Notes: generated by a model from the letters alone, not told the origin. Numbered from the stretch's first letter, positions 4,528 through 56,043 are shown. The stretch is DNA of 64,000 nt from Vampirovibrionales bacterium (GCA_035285025.1 JAYKHY010000003.1:35533-99532); one strand, 5' to 3'. Numbers and translations are program-made.

Positions 4528-4890
4528 CTAATCGTGAAACGCCCGCGCACTGGACGCATTTTGCTTACTGATTAAAAACGACATCAGCATCGATAATCCG
4601 CTGATTTGCCAAGGCGCAGAAACCTTAAAGAGGCCCGCAATCACCAGCGGAAGCGCGGCGGTTTTCGCATCAAAACGCGCTTCGGCGTCTGCCACCTGAC
4701 GGTTCAACGCGATGGTTTGCCGGGTTGCCAGCTTCAGCGCATCGCGCCAGCACGGGCTTTGCGCTTTAAATACCGCCTGCAAATGCTTGACCTTACGGTT
4801 TAAACGCAGCAACACCGAAAGCGCAAACAGCTCAATCACGGTCACGCCCAACCAAAGCCACGGACTGTTCAAGATTGCAGGGATTAGCAT
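4528..4890 (-). CDS. Hypothetical membrane protein
   Basis: 120-aa ORF just downstream of the BcsB-like pair, with an N-terminal hydrophobic helix. Confidence 0.55.
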   Translation of the reverse strand: MLIPAILNSPWLWLGVTVIELFALSVLLRLNRKVKHLQAVFKAQSPCWRDALKLATRQTIALNRQVADAEARFDAKTAALPLVIAGLFKVSAPWQISGLSMLMSFLISKQNASSARAFHD

Positions 4891-50328: not shown

Positions 50329-51132
50329 ATGAGTACCAGTTACCCTGTGAACCCCAACCCGACGCTGATTTCGACGGGCACGCTGGGCAATACTGAACGC
50401 ACGGACGCCTGGTGGCTAGAGCCCACACTGGTGGTGCTGGCGTTAATTGTTTTCGGGATTTACGGCATGTGGGCGGGCCTGCAAGGGGTCAATTTTCAGG
50501 TGCTGACGCCCAGCGGCCACGAGCTGTATTTATCGCCGTTTTATTCGCCGCTGCTGGTTCAGAATTTTCCGGTTTCGCCCGCGATTTTGGTGATGTGGAT
50601 TCCGCTCGGCTTTAGGGCGACGTGTTATTTTTACCGCCGGTGCTACCACCGCGCGTTTTTTATGAATCCGCCCAGCTGTGCGGTAACGGGGATGTGCACC
50701 AAGAAACCCGGCCAAGAGAGCGGCTACACGGGCGAGCAAAAGTTTCCGTTTATTTTAAATAACCTGCACCGGTATTTTTTATACCTTGCGATTATTCTTA
50801 CCGCGTTCCACTGGTACCATACGGTTAACGCGTTTAGTCATCTGCCCGAAGTTGGCTTGCGTGCGGGCATGGTGGTGTTTTTAATCGACGCGATTTTCTT
50901 GAGCCTGTACGTGTTTTCGTGCCACTCGTGGCGGCACTGGCTGGGCGGTAAGCTCGATAAATTCACGGCCAACGCCTTTAGCAAGTTGCGCTACGCGGGC
51001 TGGTTGCGCGTGAGTCATCTCAACGAGAATCACGGGCTGTGGGCGTGGATTAGTTTGTTTACCGTAGGGTTTGCTGATTTTTACGTGCGCATGGTGGCCA
51101 GCGGCGCGTGGCAGGATATCAAGTTGTTTTAG
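50329..51132 (+). CDS. sdhC: Succinate dehydrogenase membrane anchor (Rv0249c/Sdh1-type)
   Basis: Motifs RTD.WW, YLSPFYSP, FRATCY.YR..Y.RAF…PP.CAV, N.HRYF, SCHS.RH..GG and LN..H..WAW.SL. Upstream of sdhA/B. Confidence 0.85.
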   Translation: MSTSYPVNPNPTLISTGTLGNTERTDAWWLEPTLVVLALIVFGIYGMWAGLQGVNFQVLTPSGHELYLSPFYSPLLVQNFPVSPAILVMWIPLGFRATCYFYRRCYHRAFFMNPPSCAVTGMCTKKPGQESGYTGEQKFPFILNNLHRYFLYLAIILTAFHWYHTVNAFSHLPEVGLRAGMVVFLIDAIFLSLYVFSCHSWRHWLGGKLDKFTANAFSKLRYAGWLRVSHLNENHGLWAWISLFTVGFADFYVRMVASGAWQDIKLF

Positions 51133-51177: not shown

Positions 51178-51711
51178 ATGATTCAATCTTTATTGTTTGG
51201 TCAGCGTAGCCCTGCTGCCAGAAACAAGCCTATTAAGATCGGGAAAGAAGCGCTGAGCGGATCAAGAGCCAATCAGCTAATTAACTTACCGCCTGAAAGT
51301 GTCCAGTTCTTGCTCAAACAAGCCGAATCGCAGAAAGCCGAAATTACGCGAGAAACGTTGGGAAACCAAATTGTAAGCGCGCTTCAGCTTTTTTTAAACC
51401 GACAGCAGACACAAAAGATTCTGAGTTTCCGCTTGAATGAAACGTTAAAGGAAGATTTAGAACAGGCTTCTGACAAAGCTGGAAGGAGCTTTGCGGAGAT
51501 TTTAACTCCAATTTTGTACAAAGGGCTGGATAACATTCCGGTCAATCAAACTATTCGTGTGCCCATTAGTCTGCCTAAGGCGCTGGTTCCCGAGCTTGCT
51601 AGAATCACGGAAATCAAACAAATGGCCTCTATTCGCCAACTCATTCATTTTGCTTTAAAGCATCAGCAAAAAACCTTAGAAAACGCCTCTGTTCGGATGC
51701 CTAACCCATGA
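51178..51711 (+). CDS. Hypothetical protein with tandem ribbon-helix-helix-like repeats
   Basis: Segments ILSFRLNETLKEDLEQASDKAGRSFAEIL and VPISLPKALVPELARI…SIRQLIHFAL. ATGA overlap with sdhA. Confidence 0.7.
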   Translation: MIQSLLFGQRSPAARNKPIKIGKEALSGSRANQLINLPPESVQFLLKQAESQKAEITRETLGNQIVSALQLFLNRQQTQKILSFRLNETLKEDLEQASDKAGRSFAEILTPILYKGLDNIPVNQTIRVPISLPKALVPELARITEIKQMASIRQLIHFALKHQQKTLENASVRMPNP

Positions 51712-53465
51712 CCCTTAACTTTGAAACTCAAACCCACGACGTGCTGATTATCGGTGCCGGCGGTGCAGGCTTGCGCGCCGCGATTGAAGCCTCGGCGCAA
51801 GGCGGCCCCGATTTTAAAGTCGGCCTTGTCTGCAAATCGCTGCTGGGTAAAGCGCACACTGTAATGGCCGAAGGCGGCGCTGCCGCGGCCATGGGCAATG
51901 TAGACAGCGAAGACGGCTGGCGGACGCACTTTAAAGACACCATGCACGGCGGTAAATTTGTAAACCAGTGGCGCATGGCGCAACTGCACGCGCAAGAAGC
52001 GCCCGACAGAATCCGCGAGCTTGAGCGCTGGGGTGCCGTGTTTGATCGCACCGCCGATGGCAAGATTATTCAGCGCCCGTTTGGCGGGCACACGTACCGT
52101 CGCTTGTGCCATGTGGGCGACCGCACCGGCCTGGAGTTGATTCGGACCCTGCAAGACAAGGGCGTCCACAGCGGCATTGATGTGTTTATGGAATGCACCA
52201 TTACGCATCTGTTTCGGGATGGGCACCGCATTAGCGCCGCGCTGGGCTACTGGCGCGAAACCGGCAAACTGGTACTGTTTAAAGCCAAAGCCATTGTGCT
52301 GGCTACGGGCGGTATTGGCAAAGCCTACAAAATTACCAGCAACAGCTGGGAGTACACCGCCGATGGCCATGCGATGGCCTTAAAAGTGGGTGCGGAACTC
52401 ATCGACATGGAATTTATCCAGTTTCACCCCACCGGCATGGTCTGGCCGCCGGGCGTGCAGGGGATTCTGGTGACCGAGGCCGTGCGCGGCGAAGGCGGCT
52501 TGCTCACGAATAGCGAGGGTAAGCGCTTTATGGAAAATTACGACCCCAAGCGCATGGAACTTTCGACGCGCGACGTGGTTGCCAAAGCCATTAACAGCGA
52601 GGTCAAAGCCGGACGTGGCAGCCCGCACGGCGGCGTGTTTTTAGACATTTCGCACCGGGGCGCAGAATACATCAAGAAAAAACTCCCCAGCATGTACCAC
52701 CAGTTTAAAGAGCTGGCGGATGTGGATATTACGACCGGCCCGATGGAAGTAGGCCCGACGACGCACTACACGATGGGCGGGATTCGTGTGCACCACGAAA
52801 CGCAGGAATGCACCACGGTGCACGGCCTGTTTGCCTGCGGCGAAGTGGGCGGCGGCTTGCATGGCGGCAACCGTTTGGGTGGAAACTCGCTAAGTGATTT
52901 GCTGGTGTTTGGCCGACGGGCCGGGTTATACGCTGCCGATTTTGCCAAGAAAAACCCGCTCCCGCTGCTTGATGAAGCGTTGGTTAAAGCCGCTGTTGCC
53001 GAATTGGCCGCACCGTTTGAGCGCCAAACTGGCGAAAACCCGTTTGCGATTCACGCTGACTTACAGGTGATGATGCAAGCGAAGGTCGGTATTGTGCGAC
53101 GCCCGGAAGAACTGGAAGAAGCCATTGCTGACTTGCAGGCCCTGAAAAAACGGGCCGAAAATTGCATGGTACTCGGCTCCATTCAATTTAATCCCGGCTG
53201 GCACATGGCCATGGACTTGCAGTCGATGATCTGGATTAGCGAGTGCGTTGCGCGGTGCGCCCTGCAACGCAAAGAGAGCCGTGGCGGCCACACGCGGGAA
53301 GATTATCCGGGTTACGATCCGGTGTGGGGCAAGCAGAACAGCCTGGTGAAGCTGAATAGTCTGGATGACCCGACGTTGAACGTGGGCGTGATTGAAACGC
53401 CGCAGTTGCCCGATGATCTCAAGGCGTTGTTTGACCCCGGCGAAGTCGAAAAATACCGGGGGTAG
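51708..53465 (+). CDS. sdhA: Succinate dehydrogenase/fumarate reductase flavoprotein
   Basis: Motifs IGAGGAGLRAA, AHTVMAEGG, QFHPTG, TEAVRGEGG, HYTMGG, HGGNRLGGNSL and ESRGGH. Confidence 0.97.
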   Translation: MTLNFETQTHDVLIIGAGGAGLRAAIEASAQGGPDFKVGLVCKSLLGKAHTVMAEGGAAAAMGNVDSEDGWRTHFKDTMHGGKFVNQWRMAQLHAQEAPDRIRELERWGAVFDRTADGKIIQRPFGGHTYRRLCHVGDRTGLELIRTLQDKGVHSGIDVFMECTITHLFRDGHRISAALGYWRETGKLVLFKAKAIVLATGGIGKAYKITSNSWEYTADGHAMALKVGAELIDMEFIQFHPTGMVWPPGVQGILVTEAVRGEGGLLTNSEGKRFMENYDPKRMELSTRDVVAKAINSEVKAGRGSPHGGVFLDISHRGAEYIKKKLPSMYHQFKELADVDITTGPMEVGPTTHYTMGGIRVHHETQECTTVHGLFACGEVGGGLHGGNRLGGNSLSDLLVFGRRAGLYAADFAKKNPLPLLDEALVKAAVAELAAPFERQTGENPFAIHADLQVMMQAKVGIVRRPEELEEAIADLQALKKRAENCMVLGSIQFNPGWHMAMDLQSMIWISECVARCALQRKESRGGHTREDYPGYDPVWGKQNSLVKLNSLDDPTLNVGVIETPQLPDDLKALFDPGEVEKYRG

Positions 53466-53470
53466 AAGAG

Positions 53471-53971
53471 ATGAGCCTTAGCTCTGATGAAAAATTCGAA
53501 ATTGAAATAGAAGAAAAATTTTCGCATCTACTTATAAAAATATCAGCATTTTTCATTGTCATTTTATTTGCAGGATTTCAGGTTGACTTTTTTTCAAATA
53601 AACTTGACTATTACTATCTGCCTATCGTTTTTTTCTGCTTGTGTATATTCTCGTTATTTTTAATTAGATTTCTTATCTTATCTGCTAAAAATAGGCGCTA
53701 TATTAATTCTGTACCTTCTTTACTGTTTTTAGTAGGAATCGGCTCATCGGTTTTTCTTTTCATTAATACTACTGACTTTCAAAGAAGCAAAGGATTGGAT
53801 GGATTCTCTATCTATTCACCTGATGATCCTGATTTTGAGGGAATTTCTGCAAAGTCTATTTCGATTGAGCAGGACATGACTACAATTGCGGATAAACTAG
53901 AGAGCATTGCTGACAGCTATACTTCAGTCGAGCAGAATCTATATGAAATTAATAATAAACTCGGCTATTAA
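53471..53971 (+). CDS. AT-rich orphan membrane protein (about 3 TM plus coiled-coil tail)
   Basis: 166-aa ORF starting 5 bp after the sdhA stop, with three hydrophobic segments. Confidence 0.75.
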   Translation: MSLSSDEKFEIEIEEKFSHLLIKISAFFIVILFAGFQVDFFSNKLDYYYLPIVFFCLCIFSLFLIRFLILSAKNRRYINSVPSLLFLVGIGSSVFLFINTTDFQRSKGLDGFSIYSPDDPDFEGISAKSISIEQDMTTIADKLESIADSYTSVEQNLYEINNKLGY

Positions 53972-53998
53972 ATAAGAATGTCAAAAAAGGTTTTTAAA

Positions 53999-54031
53999 TT
54001 ATGACTCAAACTGCGACATTCAAGGTTCTTC
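53999..54031 (+). repeat. Copy of the sdhB 5' end
   Basis: TTATGACTCAAACTGCGACATTCAAGGTTCTTC vs TTATGACTCAAACTGCAACATTCAAGGTTTTTC at 55144-55176 (31/33 identical). Confidence 0.95.
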
Positions 54032-54037
54032 CTGATA

Positions 54038-54074
54038 TGTTTGAATCCGGCGAAGTCGAAAAATACCGGGGTAG
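54038..54074 (+). repeat. Copy of the sdhA 3' end
   Basis: TGTTTGAATCCGGCGAAGTCGAAAAATACCGGGGTAG vs TGTTTGACCCCGGCGAAGTCGAAAAATACCGGGGGTAG at 53428-53465 (2 substitutions, 1 deletion). Confidence 0.95.
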
Positions 54075-54104
54075 TTCACTCAAGTTCTTCCAGGAGTTTC
54101 AAAA

Positions 54105-54611
54105 ATGTTATCATCAGCATCATTGCGATTAAAAACGGTCGGCTTTAGTGCTGCAAATAGACCTACCCCCCCCATTCTGAACCATAAGCCGCAAAGACAA
54201 ATGTTTGCATTGATTCCACTGAGTGAAGTTAATGCTACGCAAAGGCCTTGCTATCAAAATTTAGCGTCACACGCACCAGAAGAGACCTTCCCTGAAGCGC
54301 AAAGAGATTTTCACCAAGCGGAGAATACCATTGGCGGGTATGTTATCAGCCAAAAACCTAACTGGTGGCAAGATAGACCTCCTGCCCATGTTAAAGCAAC
54401 CATTGATGGTCCATTCTGCTATATCAACGGATCTCGTTCTTATTTAAGGTATTGTCACTACGCCCAGCCCGGCCAAAAAGGCATCGCCTATAATTCTTCT
54501 GGCGCTAAAGTCGGCGAAGGTGTTTTTGAAGTAAATTCTGATCCCAAAACACGCCGTTATCAACCGTTCACGTTTAAAATTCTTGAAGATCTTGTTAAAA
54601 ATCTTGTTTAG
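54105..54611 (+). CDS. Orphan hypothetical protein with acid-free N-terminal leader
   Basis: 168-aa ORF with CAGGAG RBS. Confidence 0.78.
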   Translation: MLSSASLRLKTVGFSAANRPTPPILNHKPQRQMFALIPLSEVNATQRPCYQNLASHAPEETFPEAQRDFHQAENTIGGYVISQKPNWWQDRPPAHVKATIDGPFCYINGSRSYLRYCHYAQPGQKGIAYNSSGAKVGEGVFEVNSDPKTRRYQPFTFKILEDLVKNLV

Positions 54612-54628
54612 CTTTAAAGGCTTAACCC

Positions 54629-54646
54629 ATGACTCAGACTGCGACA
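54629..54646 (+). repeat. Second, shorter copy of the sdhB 5' end
   Basis: ATGACTCAGACTGCGACA (MTQTAT), 16/18 identical to the sdhB start. AAGGCTTA lies just upstream, as it does upstream of sdhB. Confidence 0.85.
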
Positions 54647-54653
54647 GTCTAGG

Positions 54654-55049
54654 CTATTTTGGCTTAATAAATTTTGTTGCAGGCTGTTGGATGGTTTCTA
54701 TTGGAAAATTATCAATCTGCCGACCTTTGTATATCGTTGATTTTCCGTATGTCTCACTCCATTCGGTGACAGGCTTTTCTCGCTTGTAAAATGTTTTGGT
54801 AACCCCTTCTAAGCCAAATTGGTATTTAAGATTAGTTTCGCCACCATTAATGCTTACGCCAAAAGAACTCAAAGGCTCTGAACCATATCCTGTTCCTCGA
54901 CTAGATCCTACCCATTCTGGCCCCAATGAATTGTGATCTAACAAATAATATTTTTCATTTTTCTTTTGCAAGATATCTAAATGTCCATTATCTCGATTCC
55001 GTCTCAGGAAAATACCCGGCGTTATCGTTTTCAAAAGCTCATCACCCAT
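54654..55049 (-). CDS. AT-rich orphan hypothetical protein, antisense within the sdh operon
   Basis: 131-aa ORF with a GGGGG RBS-like tract. Confidence 0.7.
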   Translation of the reverse strand: MGDELLKTITPGIFLRRNRDNGHLDILQKKNEKYYLLDHNSLGPEWVGSSRGTGYGSEPLSSFGVSINGGETNLKYQFGLEGVTKTFYKREKPVTEWSETYGKSTIYKGRQIDNFPIETIQQPATKFIKPK

Positions 55050-55145
55050 AAAATACCCCCAGTTAGGCTAAAAAACACTAGTATTATTAATAAAACAATT
55101 ATTTATGTTTTTGTGCTATTTAGTTGACTTAAGGCTTATGCTGTT

Positions 55146-55919
55146 ATGACTCAAACTGCAACATTCAAGGTTTTTCGTGGCGAAGCTAGCGAAAACGCAA
55201 CGCCTAACGCGTTTATTTCCGCCGACAACCACAAAACCTACAGCGTCGATGTGACGCCGGGGATGGTGGTGCTGGATGCGATTCATGCGATTCAGCGCAC
55301 CCAGGCGCCGGATTTAGCCGTACGCTGGAACTGCAAAGCCGCCAAATGCGGCTCTTGCGCCGCCGAAGTCAACGGCAAACCGCGTTTAATGTGCAAAACA
55401 CGCCTTGATGATATCGATCTGAGCCAACCCGTCGTCGTCACGCCGATGAAGGCGTTCCCGCTGATTCGGGATCTGGTGACCGATGTAAGCTGGAACTACG
55501 AGGTCAACAAGACGATTCAGCCGTTTACGCCCGCCAACGAGGACACCGAGAGCTGGCGCTACTATCAGGAAGATGCCGACCGCGTCCAGGAATTCCGTAA
55601 ATGCATTGAGTGCTTTATGTGCCAGGATGTGTGCCACGTGCTGCGCAACAACCAAAAGCACGCGCAATACGCAGGCCCGCGCTGGTTTGTACGCCTTGCA
55701 AGCCTAGAGATGCACCCGATGGACGTTGCAGACCGTATGCAGTACGTCAAAGATCAGGCCGGCATTGGGCTGTGCAACATCACCAAATGTTGCACCGAAG
55801 TTTGCCCCGAAGAGATTCATATTACGGATAACGCCATTATTCCGCTCAAGGAGCGCGTCGTGGATCGGTTCTACGATCCCGTGCAGTGGCTGTTCAGAAA
55901 ATTCGCGGGCCAAGCGTAA
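55146..55919 (+). CDS. sdhB: Succinate dehydrogenase iron-sulfur subunit
   Basis: Motifs CKAAKCGSC…C, FPLIRDLVTD, CIECFMCQDVC and CNITKCCTEVCP. Confidence 0.97.
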   Translation: MTQTATFKVFRGEASENATPNAFISADNHKTYSVDVTPGMVVLDAIHAIQRTQAPDLAVRWNCKAAKCGSCAAEVNGKPRLMCKTRLDDIDLSQPVVVTPMKAFPLIRDLVTDVSWNYEVNKTIQPFTPANEDTESWRYYQEDADRVQEFRKCIECFMCQDVCHVLRNNQKHAQYAGPRWFVRLASLEMHPMDVADRMQYVKDQAGIGLCNITKCCTEVCPEEIHITDNAIIPLKERVVDRFYDPVQWLFRKFAGQA

Positions 55920-56043
55920 AGCTGACGCTTGCTGGTTTCAAAATTCATCTAATTTAGCGCTTTTTACAGCAATTTTAGCGGTATCAAGCGCTATTTTATA
56001 TGGATTTTATCTGACTTAATCGCTTGCAAAATGAGCCGCGGGG

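Follow-up and report, generated by a model that had tools for sequence, protein, structure and literature searches.

The sdh locus and its insert

The sequence analyzed here (the window) is a stretch of 64,000 nucleotides corresponding to positions 35533-99532 of contig C3 (JAYKHY010000003.1) of a Vampirovibrionales bacterium (GCA_035285025.1). This genome, coded G000, is a metagenome-assembled genome (MAG) of 2.16 Mb, distributed over 68 contigs and 93% complete. In its sdh operon, the genes sdhA and sdhB are separated by an insert of 1.68 kb made of three orphan open reading frames (ORF1 to ORF3, the cargo) together with a copy of the sdhA end and two of the sdhB start. The features are the following (positions are those of the window; A and B are the true gene termini, and primes denote their copies).

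51708-53465, plus strand: sdhA/frdA-type flavoprotein subunit, intact, 585 aa (Pfam FAD_binding_2, E 5e-87; Succ_DH_flav_C, E 3e-23)
53428-53465, plus strand: A, the true 3' end of sdhA including its TAG stop, original of the repeat (repeat search, sequence)
53471-53971, plus strand: ORF1 (cargo 1), 166 aa (ORF call)
53999-54034, plus strand: B', copy of the sdhB start, ATG at 54001, 11 codons, 92% identical to the true start B
54038-54074, plus strand: A', copy of the sdhA 3' end, 94% identical to A over 34 nt
54001-54132, plus strand: fused B'-A' frame of 43 codons, translated as SdhB residues 1-11, Asp and an SdhA-like C-terminus
54105-54611, plus strand: ORF2 (cargo 2), 168 aa, or 136 aa from Met33 (ORF call)
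54627-54652, plus strand: B'', shorter copy of the sdhB start, ATG at 54629, reading MTQTATV then stop (repeat search, translation)
54654-55049, minus strand: ORF3 (cargo 3), antisense, 131 aa (ORF call)
55050-55143, no strand: AT-rich spacer of 94 bases, upstream of both ORF3 and sdhB (sequence)
55144-55179, plus strand: B, the true sdhB start, original of B' and B'' (repeat search)
55146-55919, plus strand: sdhB, intact, 257 aa, ATG at 55146 (Pfam Fer2_3, E 1e-25; Fer4_8)

The topology can be written A/ORF1/B'A'/ORF2/B''/ORF3/B. The initial annotation had proposed the same order, i.e., sdhA, ORF1, B', A', ORF2, B'', ORF3 in antisense and sdhB, and this order is confirmed by the repeat search and the ORF calls. 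The two flanking genes are 86% (sdhA, full length) and 82-83% (sdhB) identical to those of G001, the closest relative among the genomes compared.

The limit of each copy matches the gene that it mimics: the stop codon for the end copies, the Shine-Dalgarno motif or the ATG for the start copies. An AAGG Shine-Dalgarno-like motif precedes B', and the form AAGG(C/T)TT is found before each sdhB-start copy. The motif AAGGCTTA is common to B'' and the true sdhB start; it lies upstream of both and closes the spacer 55050-55143. B'' is 72% identical to B' over 36 nt (54627-54662), and 19 of the first 21 bases from the ATG match (counted by hand). Within B'', a 6-bp hairpin (54636-54650) precedes a T-rich run, i.e., a terminator-like element between the convergent ORF2 and ORF3. 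No promoter-like site above the scan threshold was found in the spacer.

B' and A' nearly abut: 2 nt separate them, with 2-3 unassigned bases at the joint (54034-54038). In A', one base is deleted in the G run before TAG and the stop is thereby displaced. The fused B'-A' frame extends across the start of ORF2, itself preceded by an AGGAG motif; the in-frame fusion may be a chance frame (1 in 3).

Significance of the terminus copies

The gene-terminus test was applied to 1461 ORFs of at least 150 aa. A copy was defined as at least 27/36 identities with the last or first 36 nt of the ORF, within 3.5 kb and on the same strand, and the reverse complement of the same stretch was used as control. 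Downstream end copies are found for 13/1461 ORFs and for none in the control (control maximum 24/36). An upstream start copy is found for sdhB only (31/36); the next best value is 25 and the control maximum 24. In the same way, local direct repeats are frequent genome-wide: 362 seed-extended matches at a distance of 150-4000 nt vs. 3 at a control distance of 20-24 kb. The view that the boundary repeats are copies of the termini of the flanking genes (92% for B', 94% for A') thus holds beyond chance when compared with these controls.

In 866 kb of loci from other genomes (645 genes, a biased sample), 1/645 genes has an end copy at 27/36 or more, and that case is unrelated. A 34/36 match in the metagenome locus L085 was rejected as an unrelated repeat around a kinase gene.

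The cargo ORFs

The three ORFs had been described by eye as AT-rich and mutually unrelated, and the measurements agree. The GC content of the insert is 0.27-0.45 vs. 0.53-0.62 for sdhA (200-nt windows). The GC content at third codon positions (GC3) is 0.29 for ORF1, 0.36 for ORF2 and 0.33 for ORF3 vs. 0.68 and 0.67 for sdhA and sdhB, respectively. No repeat connects ORF1, ORF2 and ORF3 with one another. Each cargo segment is almost filled by a single ORF, and the observed lengths are reached by 0/2000 (ORF1), 0/2000 (ORF2) and 1/2000 (ORF3) shuffles, with 2000 shuffles per ORF. ORF1 starts 5 nt past the sdhA stop and the N-terminal half of its product is hydrophobic (by eye).

Nothing usable was obtained for the three ORFs from Pfam, PADLOC, PHROGs and NCBIfam, ORF1 having weak PHROG matches only and the best Pfam match of ORF2 being sub-threshold and at chance level (E 0.089). 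In a word-based search of a 5.8-billion-protein collection (15, 3 and 46 candidates overall) each ORF matches only itself. None was detected in the 48 other genomes of the order that were searched, i.e., each is present in 1/49, its own. Atlas searches with ORF3 and ORF2 gave no usable feature match, and the models have a predicted local distance difference test (pLDDT) value of 0.50 and 0.36, respectively; the AlphaFold model of ORF2 has a pLDDT of 36.

A HMMER search of 1.84e9 representatives with ORF2 returned ORF2 itself and two multi-repeat proteins, one of which has 9 kringles. Residues ~100-135 of ORF2 (54402-54509) weakly align to the nine kringle repeats of this 917-aa protein (summed E 1.5e-13, 34% identity). 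This score is taken as a sum of weak repeats, and a homology of ORF2 with kringles, unproven, was not retained.

The array in the likely source run

A public run, in which 0.99 of the sampled words are found, may represent the source sample. Among its Logan contigs, produced by a different assembler, one of 10.6 kb spans 52600-54199 (sdhA, ORF1, B', A' and the start of ORF2) and one of 13.3 kb spans 54192-56000, both with 0 differences. Their depths, 9.45 and 9.12, are those of the flanks. The initial annotation had envisaged a chimeric assembly of strain alleles in case no reads spanned the junctions; these contigs span them. It must be kept in mind that they come from a different assembler and the same DNA, hence not from independent DNA. 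Runs X2 and X3 of the same study contain next to none of the stretch.

A concatenation by the assembler of three strain alleles of the sdhA-sdhB interval is nevertheless to be weighed, the genome being a 68-contig MAG from a metagenome. The two Logan contigs meet within ORF2 (54192-54199) with an overlap of just 8 nt, and no single contig covers the whole array. Against a chimera stand, besides the absence of differences and the even depth, that: (i) the longest exact runs between copies and originals are 25 and 16 nt, i.e., shorter than a 31-mer, so that copies and originals have no 31-mer in common and the B'/A' joint is a unique sequence that must exist in the reads; (ii) ORF2 remains one frame of 168 codons across the contig break; (iii) no joined, collapsed or circular form is listed among the Logan contigs of the run. 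Such a chimera is therefore regarded as very improbable indeed.

The sdhA-sdhB junction in relatives

The junction was surveyed in 29 loci of relatives of the same order, the 30th locus being that of the genome itself. In 29/29 the sdhA C-terminus and sdhB are adjacent, their alignments ending -1 to 181 nt apart. In G001, 11 nt separate the sdhA stop from the sdhB ATG. Of 80 distant metagenome loci in which a relative of SdhB occurs (at most 73% identity), 70 contain both genes; the gap measures -26 to 203 nt in 66 of them and 417-584 nt, with other small ORFs, in three, and the remaining one is arranged differently. Given these gaps, insertions at sdhA-sdhB are rare and the junction is normally tight. 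The low GC3 and the adjacency of the two genes in relatives mark the insert as foreign DNA.

A degenerate pattern of the sdhA end has no match in the metagenome contigs. Its matches in genome contigs are G001 and two others that fall in a transposase gene of two unrelated MAG contigs and were discarded as due to chance.

On three metagenome contigs (L050, L102 and L070) a small ORF lies between sdhA and sdhB, namely one of 138 aa and a related pair of 126 and 128 aa. The 138-aa ORF, found in one of them, presumably resembles the four-helix-bundle '23S rRNA intervening sequence' proteins.

Other cargo loci of the same genome

Terminus copies beside cargo are found at two further loci, on contigs C62 and C36, as the initial annotation had suggested looking for. 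The 2.16 Mb thus contain three such loci only (sdh, trp and SNF2). A peptide-level scan of gene ends (last 14 residues plus stop) revealed no additional one. Two candidate end copies, on contigs C32 and C60, are at chance level, and a genome-wide list of 581 low-GC islands was too unspecific for use.

On C62 the order is: trpB-like gene, orf103, trpB-end copy, hicA, hicB, trpA. The trpB-end copy is ~76 nt long and keeps its stop; there is no trpA-start copy. The product of orf103 is a 103-aa orphan without Pfam family, and those of the next two genes are HicA-like and HicB-like above the Pfam cut-offs. The trpB-trpA gap is 1125 nt in this genome and 833 nt in G001 vs. 48-337 nt in the 14 other relatives that have both genes; in 14 further loci of relatives trpB lies away from trpA. 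The cargo of G001 is an ORF of the LOG family (PF03641), different from the orf103 and hicAB of the present genome. Variable cargo among relatives, for which the initial annotation had suggested a check, is thus seen at trpB-trpA; at sdhA-sdhB the 29 loci of relatives are compact.

A 50-nt direct repeat (86%) is present in frame in both trpB and trpA (C62:2537-2586 and 4736-4785). The peptides encoded by the two copies are alike and rich in Ala, Ser and Gly, and the one in TrpA breaks up the Pfam match of that protein. No other copy was found in the genome.

On C36 the order is: a 1069-aa helicase of the SNF2 family, a 391-aa Fic-domain gene (GC 0.36), a copy of the helicase end (68 nt, 97%) and more low-GC genes. 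At all three loci the stop codon is the exact limit of the end copy, and more cargo lies behind it. Identifiable cargoes of the two other loci include addiction-type modules, i.e., hicAB and fic.

A tandem duplicate of ~45 nt lies directly upstream of the C36 fic gene (C36:43224-43300), and a comparable AT-rich motif, also in duplicate, is found before the fic homologue of genome G026 (locus L133, 2650-2790). These repeats may be operator-like.

Divergence of the copies and the possibility of in-situ duplication

Five copy/original pairs were compared codon by codon. Of the codon changes, 8 are synonymous and 7 non-synonymous; in addition, one stop codon is replaced by another and one stop is gained. 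At the base level the copies show 20 differences, 12 of them at third and 2 at second codon positions. The synonymous excess has P ~0.017 with respect to a rough expectation of 25%, and the signal is modest since the change GCA>GCG is counted in both B' and B''. B' differs from B by 1 synonymous and 2 non-synonymous codon changes. The SNF2 end copy differs from the resident end by TTT>TTC, CTC>CTG and TAG>TAA only (3/69 positions), and the SNF2 end of G001 differs at ~12/69 positions (counted by hand). For trpB, a three-way comparison over 57 columns gave 8 sites where the copy and G001 agree against the resident end, 5 where the resident end and G001 agree against the copy, and 7 where both differ from G001. 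According to these counts, the trpB copy is another allele or an old duplicate, and not a recent decayed duplicate.

The synonymous-leaning differences, together with the unrelated cargo between the copies, lead us to read the copies as ends of formerly functional alleles. The comparison weakly suggests that they were once-working gene ends in related genomes.

The copies could also have arisen in situ, by slippage duplication across the sdhA stop and the sdhB start (~85 nt in a compact ancestor), the cargo being inserted later into the spacers. Tandem arrays with a period of at least 30 (Tandem Repeats Finder) are 32 in number: 13 straddle the stop of a long ORF, 0 a start, 14 are inside ORFs and 5 elsewhere. 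The units of the stop-straddling arrays measure 30-170 nt, in up to 6.8 copies; each takes in 1-44 bases from the end of the reading frame and continues into the sequence behind it. Hairpins are present in the units, with their 5' arm inside the coding end. The ancestral A-spacer-B unit would thus fall within the range of array periods, and the three-way counts for trpB are those that an old duplicate may give as well. However, three separate insertions would have to be assumed in neighbouring short spacers, and similar events at trpB and SNF2 as well. None of the 13 stop-straddling arrays spans a gene start, unlike the sdh array. G001 has no duplicate at either sdhA-sdhB or trpB-trpA. Finally, the synonymous-leaning pattern and the stop-to-stop change of SNF2 are unexpected for non-coding duplicates. 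In-situ duplication is for these reasons considered unlikely. As for the stop-straddling arrays themselves, slippage at terminators is one possible origin; another is that they are cargo-free products of the same additive recombination as discussed below for the sdh array.

Recombination machinery and the possibility of mini-islands

The absence of integrase, attC-like site and insertion sequence (IS) ends, noticed in the initial annotation, agrees with the searches made here. For the integron integrase, the best TIGR02249 score in the whole genome is 69.9 bits vs. a cut-off of 265, the same as in integron-free controls. There are no attC-like palindromes at the boundaries: an inverted-repeat search (up to 150 nt, generic and not an attC model) gave weak AT-rich pairs only, all of them away from the boundaries. 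Rfam gave 0 matches at E up to 1, and no IS ends were found at the array. No tyrosine recombinase (PF00589) is present inside the window, and no recombinase in any of the three units.

The genome has four tyrosine recombinases. The nearest one (C3:105382-105876, a 210-aa frame) is located ~5.8 kb beyond the end of the window and ~15 kb downstream of the array. The region C3:103039-110482, 12-20 kb downstream of the array and up to the contig end, contains three low-GC islands and this short tyrosine recombinase.

It is known that elements of the cis-mobilizable element (CIME) type are integrase-less derivatives of genomic islands, found at the 3' ends of tRNA or protein genes and able to accrete in tandem. 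The array could be a series of such mini-islands, their att site mimicking the 3' end of the target and a tyrosine recombinase moving them in trans; B' would then have been acquired via imprecise excision from an earlier sdhA/element/sdhB site. Direct repeats of the target 3' end up to the stop are the classic signature of these islands, and one of the four tyrosine recombinases lies downstream of the array beside low-GC islands. Moreover, G026 (contig C23, another genus) has a fic homologue, 47% identical to the C36 fic, that is part of a 1.6-kb unit along with a short segment before it. On both sides of this unit lies the same 52-nt sequence, a perfect direct repeat resembling a tRNA 3' end (L133, 1358-1409 and 2987-3038). 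No integrase is present in this mini-island, and the other 10 fic loci of relatives have no flanking end repeats, save the tRNA case and a CRISPR array.

Several points argue against mini-islands: (i) a recombinase is absent from every unit; (ii) the three targets (sdhA, trpB and SNF2 ends) have no evident common core (by eye), so that one enzyme would need three specificities; (iii) the sdhB-start copies demand an extra ad hoc step; (iv) units of 0.5 kb are far below the size of known islands; (v) the repeats differ mostly synonymously and are not identical crossover cores. We thus assign to mini-islands a small but appreciable probability. The idea that a casposase- or Cas1-like enzyme made a long target-site duplication was also considered and has no support.

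A CRISPR-like array (repeats of ~36 nt, spacing of 66 nt) adjoins another fic homologue, at locus L132 (G045 C22), positions 1-900.

Proposed additive stacking of alleles

The explanation that we prefer, and to which we give an even chance of being right, is an additive, recombination-driven stacking of alternative 'gene end/cargo/gene start' alleles. The donors would be related genomes, in each of which a cassette was already present at the same sdhA-sdhB junction, and the sdhA-end and sdhB-start copies would be relics of the ends of the incoming DNA. Each event would be additive, instead of a clean double-crossover replacement of the resident allele. On one side homologous recombination would take place in the conserved gene; on the other side the DNA would be joined illegitimately, some tens of bases into the resident terminus (homology-facilitated illegitimate recombination). 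Alternatively, a circularised fragment integrating through one crossover would produce the same topology. The linear and the circular route each need one illegitimate joint, and the linear route needs one event fewer. The operon genes survive since an intact sdhA remains on the left and an intact sdhB on the right. Recombination between longer direct repeats would remove the cargo, which may be why short copies alone have survived. No dedicated recombinase would be needed, homology to host genes serving as the 'address'. With the ComEC and DprA families represented in the genome, DNA uptake is possible. The anatomy of the array, its restriction to this genome, its recurrence at two further loci and the different trpB-trpA cargo of the nearest relative are observed directly; the donors, the succession of events, the route of recombination and whatever function the cargo may have are inferred.

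The initial annotation had proposed the integration of a circular A'-cargo-B' unit. A circle yields the same topology and is a possible intermediate; it is not required, and a contig-level look gave no circle or collapsed form. The description of the units as tandem 'sdhA end/cargo/sdhB start' alleles fits their appearance.

A number of observations weigh against additive stacking. At sdhA-sdhB the relatives show the empty state only, and neither a donor allele nor a homologue of ORF1-3 was found anywhere searched; that the units are alternative alleles we infer from a single genome, i.e., one MAG. The synonymous bias of the copies is modest, the trpB counts also fit an old in-situ duplicate, and the corresponding three-way comparison for sdhA is uninformative. 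Stop-straddling tandem repeats are numerous in the genome, which makes an in-situ origin of the end copies possible, and the fic mini-island of G026 with its tRNA-end repeat has the classic signature of an integrase. The B'/A' joint is without clear microhomology, a few bases of which are typical of an illegitimate junction; a candidate joint at GGCGAAG, present in the sdhB start region and in the sdhA end, was discarded as the actual joint lies elsewhere. Finally, ComEC and DprA are widespread and their presence is no demonstration of competence.

One may go further and suppose a recombinase-free cassette system, i.e., small selfish genes with host-terminus homing arms, lodged in the sdh and trp operons and stacked under the drive of addiction. 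These genes, which would include addiction-type modules such as hicAB and fic as well as orphans, would move from one related genome to another. Speculatively, recombinants that replace a resident addiction cassette would die, and only additive integrations would persist. Junctions of essential or central operons would be the sites where deletions are costly, and the same process could have left the stop-straddling tandem repeats as products free of cargo. This extended version is quite improbable.

If additive stacking is correct, cassettes are added, and not just swapped, at conserved junctions by host recombination, which would give integron-like arrays without integrase; the terminus copies would be natural footprints of additive events. 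A short, synonymously diverged copy of a gene end or start beside AT-rich cargo would then be a search signature with which events and donors could be traced. A link between addiction modules and cassette stacking would become testable. If, on the other hand, these are one-off rearrangements in a single MAG, the array is a curiosity of limited reach.

Comparison with known systems

At a given site, minimal mobile elements (MMEs) substitute for one another. To our knowledge, they leave no duplicated gene termini. Like MMEs, the loci described here contain whole-gene cassettes between conserved genes (sdhA/sdhB, trpB/trpA), without mobility genes or terminal repeats of their own, and the trpB-trpA cargo differs between this genome and G001. 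Unlike MMEs, the alleles are stacked, copies of 24-80 nt of the flanking gene ends lie between them, the sites are inside operons, and the alternative allele at sdhA-sdhB was seen in no other genome surveyed. In Neisseria, clusters of up to three genes are described as alternative unique loci at syntenic sites, in the account of Saunders and Snyder (2002) as cited in PMC1797815, whose relevant passages attribute their movement to DNA uptake and recombination in the flanks. If additive stacking holds, the MME idea would be extended past Neisseria to an uncultured sister group of cyanobacteria and to core metabolic operons.

The sdh array resembles integron arrays in being a tandem and compact series of mostly single-gene, unrelated, often orphan and AT-rich cassettes at one site, 2/3 of the sdh cassettes being co-oriented with the upstream promoter side. 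It differs from them by the absence of IntI and of attC-like palindromes at the sdh array, by boundaries that are copies of host gene termini and by one antisense cassette. The initial annotation had spoken of an integron-like accretion hotspot. This is overstated because the junction is compact in 29/29 relatives, the orphans are found in their own genome only, no circle or collapsed form was seen and the cargo loci are three in number; rare additive events fit, and not a dedicated active accretion system.

Likeness to integrative islands resides in the direct repeats of the target 3' end (34-38 nt for sdhA, 68 nt for SNF2, ~76 nt for trpB), in the tandem arrangement of several units and in the fic mini-island with tRNA-end repeats of a relative. 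The differences are units of 0.5-1.5 kb without recombinase at three unrelated targets, the additional copies of the start of the downstream gene and repeats diverged mostly at synonymous sites.

The layout gene/foreign ORF/C-terminal copy is also that of fungal homing-endonuclease insertions. For the mitochondrial genes cob and atp6, the passages concerned of PMC6279837 describe the gene, one or several foreign ORFs and a partial C-terminal copy, with free-standing homing-endonuclease ORFs. Unlike these, the present case has no endonuclease domain (GIY-YIG, LAGLIDADG or HNH; Pfam search of ORF1-3, orf103 and Fic), is located on a bacterial chromosome and includes start copies.

Two processes are close to the events proposed. 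Homology-facilitated illegitimate recombination involves linear DNA with one homologous and one illegitimate end (PMC3240628), and transformation can trigger tandem duplications of 100-900 kb (PMC3784515). Either process would yield the observed topology; both are laboratory observations in other species and at other scales, and neither microhomology at the joint nor a donor is documented here. A limited literature search gave no account of stacked cassettes delimited by copies of the termini of both flanking genes.

Remaining features of the window

Upstream of the insert, the window contains a gidB-like gene on the minus strand, then the sdhC-like gene, orfX and sdhA. The following features complete the description.

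50329-51132, plus strand: sdhC-like membrane subunit, 267 aa, first gene of the operon (tblastn; in four relatives the gene preceding sdhA is 47-61% identical to it)
51178-51711, plus strand: orfX, 177-aa orphan between the sdhC-like gene and sdhA (weak ribbon-helix-helix/Arc/CopG-like match, PHROG 582, E 1e-5)
1951-2345 (C3:37483-37877): stop-straddling tandem array

The sdhC-like protein has no match in Pfam or NCBIfam and is so named owing to its position in the operon. The stop of orfX overlaps the ATG of sdhA. Its GC content is 0.41-0.47 and its GC3 0.44; no terminus copies accompany it. Like the cargo ORFs, orfX is present in 1/49 genomes of the order, i.e., its own. Given the compact sdhC-sdhA junction of G001, orfX is a second insert in the operon, again specific to this genome.

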